Source: Desulfuromonadales bacterium
GTDB lineage: Bacteria; Desulfobacterota; Desulfuromonadia; Desulfuromonadales; SZUA-540
DNA length: 54,710 nucleotides
Direction of reading: 5' to 3'
NCBI GenBank assembly: GCA_033549025.1
Contig: JAWSUS010000023.1
Coordinates: 1 to 54,710 of the forward strand
The translations under genes and the position numbers were made by a program. Positions within the stretch are counted from its first letter, which is position 1. Every line of letters starts with the position of its first letter. The notes below the pieces were generated by a model, which saw nothing but the letters and a program-made list of their open reading frames with translations, had not been told where the DNA came from and searched no databases. Positions 17,065-20,192 of the stretch are shown piece by piece.

Positions 17065-17568
17065 ATGCTGTTACACTGCACACGCAAGCTGGCGGCTAAA
17101 ATGCCGGCGATTTCCTCCGCACCTCTGGTCGAAAAGAGCCCTCTCGGCAGCTGGCACGCCAACCTCGTGCAGGTCAAGCGTCGACAGTGTGTCCTTTTCT
17201 GCCATGACGTGACGCGTTACATGCTCTTTGTGCCCGGTCTGAAGAAACCCCATTTCGAGGATCTTGGCCGGGTATTCAGGGATGTTTTTCTCATGAGCCT
17301 GGTCTCCCATGGCGTGACCGATGCGAAGATCATGCGGGTGAGTCTGGCGCTGGGGCCGCCGGCCTTCGATGGCAACACCAACCGCTCGGTTCTGGGGGCG
17401 ATGAATATCGCCATGCAGGATCTGGAAGGTTATCTGGTCACCTGCCAGGACCTGCTGGAGATCGACCTGGCCGGCGCCGCCCTTTATCTCAACGAACGGC
17501 CCACTTCGGTGCAGGGAAACTGGATCTGGCCCACGCAGGAGATGCTGGACCGGGTGGCCGCTCTTTAA
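17065..17568 (+). CDS. Hypothetical protein (DUF6933-like)
   Basis: MLLHCTRKL, PLGSWHAN, TNRSVLGAMN, LNERP motifs. Confidence 0.65.
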   Translation: MLLHCTRKLAAKMPAISSAPLVEKSPLGSWHANLVQVKRRQCVLFCHDVTRYMLFVPGLKKPHFEDLGRVFRDVFLMSLVSHGVTDAKIMRVSLALGPPAFDGNTNRSVLGAMNIAMQDLEGYLVTCQDLLEIDLAGAALYLNERPTSVQGNWIWPTQEMLDRVAAL

Positions 17569-19253: not shown

Positions 19254-19277
19254 GCGGGACTTTCTCGTGAGGTGACC

Positions 19278-19460
19278 ATGAACAAAGGACTTAAAGTGTT
19301 GATCTTCGCCGGTGTCGGCACGCTGGCCGGCGCCCTCCTCGGCTATCTGGGGCAATGCGTCGGCAATACCTGAGGCGCTTTGGCCGGCCCCTGGTCAGGG
19401 GCCCTGTTCGGTGTGATTGTGGGGACGGTGCTGGGTCTGCTCCCCGAAGAGAAAAAGTAA
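19278..19460 (+). CDS. Putative 60-aa membrane selenoprotein (DUF6132-like; UGA = Sec at codon 32)
   Basis: GAGGTG RBS; MNKGLKVLIFAGVGTLAGALLGYLGQCVGNT-UGA-GALAGPWSGALFGVIVGTVLGLLPEEKK*; SECIS-like hairpin downstream of the UGA. Confidence 0.8.
19386..19403 (+). promoter_or_regulatory. Bacterial SECIS-like hairpin
   Basis: GGCCCCT-GGTC-AGGGGCC; stem starts 12 nt after the UGA (19371-19373) and the loop begins with G. Confidence 0.7.
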
Positions 19461-19491: not shown

Positions 19492-19537
19492 AATCCCCCG
19501 TCACGGTCTCATCGTACCGTGGCGGGGGATTTTTTTT
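19492..19537. terminator. Intrinsic terminator (probably shared with the thi operon)
   Basis: AATCCCCCGTCACGGT...ACCGTGGCGGGGGATTTTTTT. Confidence 0.75.
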
Positions 19538-20192
19538 AGCTCTGATTGGCCGGTTGAGGAGCCAGTGCCGTCAGAAAAGAACGGGCGGCTTCGGCCGGGT
19601 CGGCGGCCGCCAGGATGGCGCCGATACAGGCGGCGCGGGTGCAGCCGGCTTCCTGCAGTTCCAGTATGCGCGCGGGGGTGACACCGCCGAGGGCGAAGAC
19701 GGCGAGGGGGGCGGTGGCGCAGGCCTGGCGCAGGTCGCCCGGACCGACGGGGTCGCCGTAAGGGAGTTTGGAGGGGGTGGCGTAGACGGGACCGAAGGTG
19801 ACGAAGTCGGCGCCCTGCTCGGCGGCCCTGAGGATCTCGTCGGCCCGGTGGGTGGAGACGCCGAGGAGCCGGCTGGGACCGAGCAAACGCCGGGCCACGG
19901 CGACGGGGAGGGAGTCGCCCCCCAGGTGGACGCCGTCGGCATCCACGGCCAAGGCAACATCAATGCGGTCGTTGATGAGCAGGTGCGCACCGGCCTCGCG
20001 GGTGATGCCGCGCAACTGTCTGGCCAGCGTGTAGAGGGCGGCGGCGGGCAGGTCCTTCTCCCGCAGCTGTACGGCTCGCACGCCGCCGGCCAGAGCCTGG
20101 CGCACCGTTTCGACCAGGTCGCGCCCGTCCGTCAGAACATGGCGGTCGCTGATGAGATAGAGACTGAAATCGACGGCATCCGGTTTTGGCAT
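19536..20192 (-). CDS. thiE: Thiamine-phosphate synthase
   Basis: VQLREKD, INDRIDVA, GVHLG, GVSTH, TPSK, ALGG. Confidence 0.93.
   Translation of the reverse strand: MPKPDAVDFSLYLISDRHVLTDGRDLVETVRQALAGGVRAVQLREKDLPAAALYTLARQLRGITREAGAHLLINDRIDVALAVDADGVHLGGDSLPVAVARRLLGPSRLLGVSTHRADEILRAAEQGADFVTFGPVYATPSKLPYGDPVGPGDLRQACATAPLAVFALGGVTPARILELQEAGCTRAACIGAILAAADPAEAARSFLTALAPQPANQS

Follow-up and report, generated by a model that had tools for sequence, protein, structure and literature searches.

One example of a membrane cysteine pair that is fed by cytoplasmic thioredoxin is DsbD/CcdA, which is built from six to eight helices. A smaller arrangement is found in the YgaP transmembrane domain (PF11127, formerly DUF2892), a two-helix module tied to rhodanese that is dimeric in E. 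coli (according to the consulted part of PMC4730233). Selenocysteine (Sec) within the membrane is known from catalogued selenoproteins such as YeeE/YedE with its GUxSG motif, SaoP and the mercuric transport protein, which combine a UGA codon with an adjacent SECIS hairpin (excerpts of PMC13188914). Closest to the gene described here are the Cys forms of the Pfam family DUF6132 (PF19628), including thioredoxin and rhodanese fusions, in which two glycine-zipper helices surround a CxxxxC loop.

The present gene shares that layout, but where the second Cys would be it has a UGA with a SECIS hairpin. It is a stand-alone gene with no redox genes beside it and belongs to a set in which the residue after the site is Gly in 39/44 Sec forms, whereas it is Pro in 139/153 DUF6132 database relatives. 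The likeness to DsbD/CcdA is one of analogy only: the cysteine pair is shared, there are two helices here rather than six or more, no match of this protein to the DsbD/CcdA family was found, and a CcdA-like neighbour occurs at 1/60 Cys loci. YgaP-TM is a frequent neighbour of Cys-form DUF6132, and kinship between the two was considered and rejected, as hhalign gave a probability of 0.6% and no profile similarity. The catalogued membrane selenoproteins differ in family and motif. Table 1 of that 2026 survey (PMC13188914), with 119 selenoprotein families, has no PF19628 or CxxxxU row, and the deep-Sep report (PMC12013277) does not include a Sec-DUF6132 among its new families. No description of a DUF6132 function, or of a CxxxxU or UxxxC Sec form, was found in the open-licence full-text literature, where the single paper retrieved by the family name is, to judge from its title, on an unrelated subject. 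Very likely the gene encodes a genuine Sec variant, absent from the selenoprotein lists compared here, of an already known family of small membrane proteins, DUF6132.

In the window, i.e., the whole stretch of 54,710 nucleotides that was analysed, the frame opens with ATG, meets an in-frame TGA at codon 32 and closes with TAA at 19458-19460 (Table 1). When the TGA is read through, two glycine-rich hydrophobic stretches flank a polar loop that holds Cys27 and the UGA. The first-pass annotation had described a 61-codon frame with a good ribosome-binding site that the ORF track had missed; both the frame and the site were seen again, and the table-11 list of ORFs of ≥50 aa does not contain the full 60-aa frame. 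No difference is listed at the UGA codon in contigs of the three public runs that cover it.

Table 1. Features of the small selenoprotein gene and its immediate surroundings (window positions).
Feature	Position	Strand	Basis
CDS, 60 aa plus stop, DUF6132 family, Sec form (CxxxxU)	19278..19460	+	PF19628 score with U read as C
Shine-Dalgarno-like putative ribosome-binding site	19269..19275	+	sequence; function inferred
Predicted membrane helix 1, residues 7-25, glycine zipper G14/G18/G22	19296..19352	+	hydropathy; conservation; model helix 3-28
Cys27, predicted partner of Sec32	19356..19358	+	conservation in close homologues and database relatives
In-frame UGA, predicted selenocysteine 32	19371..19373	+	TGA in 44/44; Cys in 149/153 relatives
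Predicted bacterial SECIS hairpin, 7 perfect bp, 4-nt loop at 19393-19396	19386..19403	+	folding; conservation; model constraints
Predicted membrane helix 2, residues 38-55, glycine zipper G41/G45/G49	19389..19442	+	conservation; model; hydropathy
Intrinsic terminator-like hairpin, 16 pairs, with T run	19492..19538	+	between small gene and convergent thiE; folding z -5.2

Upstream lies an ATP-dependent DNA ligase gene, whose stop is 24 nt from the ATG of the small gene. This short gap, and a terminator only 3' of the small gene, make it plausible from the sequence that xthA, the ligase gene and the small gene are transcribed together. The strong hairpin with its T run may terminate transcription in both directions, i.e., of the small gene and of thiE. 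Parts of the stretch occur in six public RNA runs, but only in contigs that are low and even and cross genes on either strand. The xthA-ligase neighbourhood recurs only at L023 and L024, both from same-genus relatives, in a count over 74 searched loci that includes some duplicates and many loci with only 1.5 kb on each side. Because this context is limited to the genus, it is probably uninformative on function, and a functional link to xthA and the ligase was rejected. More generally, the nearest long upstream frame lies on the same strand and within 60 nt in 5/35 loci. A DUF6933 gene is located upstream of xthA (17065-17568 of the window), and a homologue of it also adjoins the selenoprotein gene in genome G021. 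Separately, the Desulfuromusa-type loci (L089, L093, L097-L107) carry a conserved gene of ~166 aa about 100 nt downstream of the selenoprotein gene and on the same strand.

Membership of DUF6132, with Sec replacing the second Cys, had been suggested on the basis of layout. Against PF19628 (cut-off 23.2 bits), the protein with Cys substituted for U reaches 32.2 bits and the DNA with the stop read through 26.8 bits; the two Gly-rich hydrophobic helices surround a loop with two Cys-equivalent residues, and relatives carry Cys at the codon-32 site, all of which bears the suggestion out. A protein search with the single sequence gave no match, and it was an alignment search that found the relatives: 33 proteins, mostly stubs of 31-32 aa that end just before the UGA, together with full-length Cys forms. 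In RefSeq only the 31-32 aa stubs were found (e.g., WP_291317761.1 and WP_394708351.1), some of them titled "DUF6132 family protein". The plasmid collection gave no match to a Cys form, and no NCBIfam 20.0 model, for a selenoprotein or otherwise, reaches its cut-off for this protein. None of the database proteins retrieved for the relatives contains U, in a search whose exact look-up would miss U-bearing records.

One line of evidence on the reading of the interrupting codon is its conservation. Across 61 related genomes, 27 gave a match at E 0.1, and the 20 true ones (own genome included) all have TGA at the aligned codon; 14 weak matches (E 0.004 or worse, none with TGA) were set aside as unrelated glycine-rich helices. 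A scan of all species, in which one of the two patterns could match Cys codons only, returned 25 loci, 24 of them with TGA and the 25th, L109 (Caproicibacter), a non-member. Once duplicates are removed, TGA occupies the site in all 44 distinct close homologues, and TAA, TAG or a frameshift never does. Cys27 is present in fixed register in 42 of these 44, the other two being spaced CxxU and Cx5U, and it is kept in 152 of 153 database relatives, where the codon-32 site itself is Cys in 149 and Trp in 4.

The machinery for Sec insertion is also in place, as the first reading of the DNA had asked to be checked: selA, selB, selD and tRNA-Sec all score above cut-off in the host genome. There, selA, selB and selD lie adjacent on one strand (G000:C5:148101-152131), and selD has its own in-frame TGA. 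Among TGA-bearing genomes selA was detected in 24/25 and 29/30, the two misses being 78-79% complete. Since selA is also found in 29/31 comparison genomes without a confirmed copy of the gene, its presence is necessary rather than telling and counts as weak evidence. Taken with the Cys of the relatives and with the hairpin considered below, these observations agree with the original proposal, and the UGA at codon 32 is very likely read as selenocysteine, as far as sequence comparison can tell.

Several variants of the Sec form were observed. A divergent copy with CxxU spacing sits on a long branch (L041:1471-1635, genome G003); its genome is 78% complete and yielded no selA. Two loci, L060 and L214, have one extra loop residue (Cx5U) and retain the same SECIS hairpin. 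Two Sec-form paralogues per genome occur in G245 (L055 and L064) and G215 (L057 and L063); in the second paralogue type, Gly is replaced by Trp in the hairpin codons, together with a two-sided change by which the stem would be preserved.

The candidate SECIS element begins 12 nt after the UGA, and its loop, with G as first nucleotide, lies 19 nt after it. The bSECIS model calls for a loop of 3-9 nt, a stem of 4-16 bp, a G in the first two loop positions, a distance of 16-37 nt from the UGA and an energy of at most -7.5 kcal/mol (as given in excerpts of PMC13188914). A custom script that accepts perfect stems only, and is not bSECISearch, found every value within these limits (loop of 4 nt, 7 bp, G first, 19 nt, -13.4 kcal/mol). 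Taken alone, the hairpin is weak evidence, because its folding z is -0.35 against shuffles and equally stable hairpins arise at other TGA triplets of the genome (0.53% of 3000 sampled; ~550 of 104,470 sites); what exceeds chance is the conservation of the TGA and of the frame that follows it. Codons +6, +8 and +9 within the hairpin use a single synonymous codon in 39/44, 32/36 and 38/42 sequences, compared with a single-codon share of 0.29-0.58 at other conserved Gly codons, and the Thr codon directly before the UGA is one codon in 89%. Correspondingly, pS is 0.42 in the hairpin codons vs 0.69 and 0.70 on either side. Across 20 sequences, 92.9% of stem cells are paired, with two-sided change at 2/7 pairs, while three of the seven pairs never vary and carry no covariation information. 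A strict hairpin is found in 32/44 Sec forms, at 5.4% of genome TGAs and in 2/59 Cys-coding controls, although the lower GC of these controls (0.51 vs 0.60) explains part of the gap. Position, fit to the model and conservation thus concur with the first-pass annotation, which had singled out a perfect GGCCCCT-type hairpin 12 nt after the UGA as the SECIS.

The predicted protein is a helix-loop-helix in the AlphaFold model (pLDDT 77.7; 19 alignment rows). A natural fusion to thioredoxin, modelled from 45 rows, likewise has two helices of ~20 residues joined by a 12-residue loop (pLDDT 92.6). Foldseek against the PDB returned nothing at E 0.001 or better, and a PDB sequence search with a 70-row profile gave 0 matches. 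In 48 Sec sequences, divided into rough fixed segments, the mean number of K+R is 2.56 at the N-terminus, 0.23 in the loop and 1.31 at the C-terminus. From this distribution it is rather likely that both termini are cytoplasmic and that the loop points toward the periplasm. In the thioredoxin fusions the corresponding values are 0.84/1.70/1.05; this bias is ambiguous, and an outward orientation of the loop may therefore not hold for every member.

Evidence on function comes from relatives. A profile search found 286 representatives; in 55 of the 150 listed, the two-helix hairpin is followed by a thioredoxin domain whose CxxC is intact in most cases (WCGPC in 26/55), one has a peroxiredoxin, and one has both thioredoxin and peroxiredoxin. 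Three Atlas clusters consist of DUF6132-rhodanese fusions (58-71 members). A rhodanese fusion (L112:1135-1650, G509) also occurs in a Bacillota genome that has selA, yet it is a Cys form; another Bacillota copy follows trxA. Thiol or sulfur genes, counted as thioredoxin, thioredoxin reductase, rhodanese, YgaP-TM, CoA-disulfide reductase and CcdA, lie within 1.6 kb of 27/60 non-redundant metagenome Cys loci (from 78 of 80 fetched) vs 15/990 windows of this genome, a contrast that is overstated, since the neighbour queries were drawn from the same loci and the background is one unrelated genome. In the own clade, 0/40 wider loci have thioredoxin, thioredoxin reductase, rhodanese or similar genes, and neighbours vary from genus to genus; the redox link is therefore borrowed from relatives that are 25-45% identical.

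On this borrowed footing, it seems probable that the protein carries a membrane redox loop, formed by Cys27 and Sec32, that is recharged by thioredoxin. Binding of SelB to the hairpin would allow Sec insertion at the UGA and yield a 60-residue two-helix hairpin in the inner membrane, whose loop would cycle between a selenenyl-sulfide and the reduced thiol/selenol. Sec32 would be the attacking residue and Cys27 the resolving one, an assignment that follows the Sec chemistry described in the available part of PMC13188914. NADPH, passing electrons through TrxB to TrxA, is the likely source; five thioredoxin-family matches above cut-off exist elsewhere in the genome. How electrons would pass from cytoplasmic thioredoxin to an outward loop is a guess, with a glycine-zipper oligomer or a mobile hairpin as possible routes. 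The substrate can be named only tentatively: compounds at the membrane that contain a disulfide or sulfane sulfur (persulfide, polysulfide) are candidates. Elemental sulfur serves Desulfuromonas-type bacteria in respiration, a task for which a related genus employs a Sec enzyme (excerpts of PMC13510729); this makes polysulfide a sensible candidate.

The same loop could instead bind a soft metal or metalloid (As, Hg or Cu) at the membrane for efflux or methylation, with thioredoxin only keeping it reduced. Several membrane selenoproteins are tied to metal resistance (excerpts of PMC13188914), and the neighbours of Cys forms include RND and outer-membrane efflux genes (5 each), arsenite-methyltransferase-like genes beside 7/60 loci, and a methyltransferase domain in 9/123 neighbour proteins, one of them nearest to arsenite methyltransferase although below the cut-off. 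However, such neighbours occur at 0/40 own-clade loci, the motif spacing varies (CxxU, CxxxxU, Cx5U, UxxxC), and 72 long relatives lack any metal-binding fusion, the fused domains being thioredoxin, peroxiredoxin and rhodanese. Metal binding by the selenoprotein is therefore unlikely. The first reading had named thiol/selenol redox chemistry or metal binding side by side; the fusions and neighbours of the relatives favour the former and disfavour the latter. At L163, L164, L169, L172, L179 and L186, a Cys-form DUF6132 gene lies directly upstream of an arsenite-methyltransferase-like gene, mostly followed by a radical SAM gene.

Another possibility is that the loop is cytoplasmic or half buried and that the selenoprotein is a direct thioredoxin substrate. 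It would then act as an anchor at the membrane or carry sulfur, and nothing would be transferred to the other side. This reading would suit the fused thioredoxins, which are of the classic cytoplasmic type (P0044 scores above the TIGR01068 cut-off, and 26/55 have WCGPC), and the 1.7 K+R of the fusion loops; the fusion model, with a pTM of 0.74, offers a weak hint of domain contact that is not evidence of docking. Against it, the own clade has a strongly basic N-terminus and a loop that is not basic, and if both helices cross the membrane, a domain fused at the C-terminus lies on the side of the N-terminus, opposite the loop. A cytoplasmic or buried loop is accordingly quite unlikely, and the thioredoxin-recharged loop facing the periplasm is retained as the preferred reading.

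Two further explanations deny selenocysteine altogether. If the UGA were a real stop, the gene would encode a 31-residue peptide or be a pseudogene, as the 31-32 aa database entries would have it, and some termination is in any case expected at Sec UGA codons. Yet the downstream half is open in 42/42 fixed-register homologues, with no stop in the 21 codons after the TGA, which is the opposite of homologues ending at the site, the outcome that the first-pass annotation had held would count against the Sec reading. Furthermore, pN/pS is 0.19/0.69 before the hairpin codons and 0.36/0.70 after them, so that the downstream half appears to be under coding conservation; the break is always TGA at one site, and the stub alone scores 18.2 bits, under the Pfam cut-off of 23.2. 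A true stop is thus very improbable.

Decoding of the UGA as Trp or Cys is just as improbable. In its favour, the four Trp relatives leave the proposed check of the aligned residue short of unanimous, and in a quick tree three of the four cluster with Sec-type loci. Against it, the contigs behind these four proteins are 504-1480 bases long, and each of the 12 genome matches to one of the proteins has TGA inside, in keeping with a gene caller that applied a different code. In addition, an in-frame TGA interrupts selD itself, and TGA ends 423/858 long frames of the genome, the commonest stop there and hence an ordinary one that has not been reassigned. In the four proteins concerned (P0038, P0093, P0100 and P0162), UGA was probably read as Trp by gene callers on short contigs.

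With Sec at codon 32 as the retained reading, a second Sec clade in other Desulfobacterota families can be compared with the present locus. A broader profile matched 39/401 phylum genomes, with TGA in 40/41 matches. Among 22 new loci examined, 19 lack the first Cys and have a new Cys four residues after the UGA (UxxxC); the clade comprises L215-L234 (G575, G097, G598, G246, G071 and others). These loci form one branch with support 96 in the quick tree, which covers 92 of 270 rows, leaves 57 of 89 branches open and cannot count Sec origins. They resemble the present gene in having the UGA at the same site, the two-helix layout and selA-positive genomes, and differ in the loss and gain of Cys, in adjacent thioredoxin genes (trxA or trxB within ~1.5 kb in 11/19) and in the RNA element, which is canonical and adjacent in the CxxxxU form. 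Three UxxxC proteins tested all fall below the Pfam DUF6132 cut-off.

The canonical SECIS test is passed by 5/19 UxxxC loci, whereas 14 of the 19 carry, ~63 nt after the UGA, a hairpin that spans the stop codon and hardly varies. In the alignment of this distal hairpin, from which five loci were left out (the near-copies of L220, and the longer or more distant L222, L225, L228 and L231), 95.6% of cells are paired, with two-sided change at 3/13 pairs. A proximal hairpin for this clade was rejected, as it has 73.7% of cells paired vs 95.6% for the distal one. An additional helix in these loci would shorten the gap between UGA and hairpin and may bring the hairpin close. Every clade retains Sec or Cys at site 32, whereas the UxxxC clade has given up Cys27; this constancy of site 32 while the partner Cys moves points to residue 32 as the active one.

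A more far-reaching interpretation is that DUF6132 is the smallest trans-membrane redox relay, a two-helix and probably oligomeric device. Thioredoxin or rhodanese on the cytoplasmic side and a Cys/Sec loop facing the periplasm would exchange electrons or sulfane sulfur through it, and sulfur-cycling Desulfobacterota would have upgraded it to Sec in two designs or more, among them CxxxxU, whose SECIS is adjacent, and UxxxC, whose SECIS is distant. In this full form the proposal is speculative and more doubtful than not. If it held, the two designs would offer a natural pair for testing the reach of SelB, and the surprise would be much higher if a protein of two helices proved able to pass redox equivalents across the membrane. 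Since reports of new bacterial selenoprotein families appear regularly, the surprise of the finding as it stands is moderate. Even so, it adds to the bacterial selenoproteome a family that current annotation misses, as the half-length RefSeq stubs illustrate. Its 60-residue size would make tagging and assay easy, the thioredoxin and rhodanese fusions supply the first testable hypothesis for DUF6132, and the presence of Sec singles out residue 32 as the family's likely active site.
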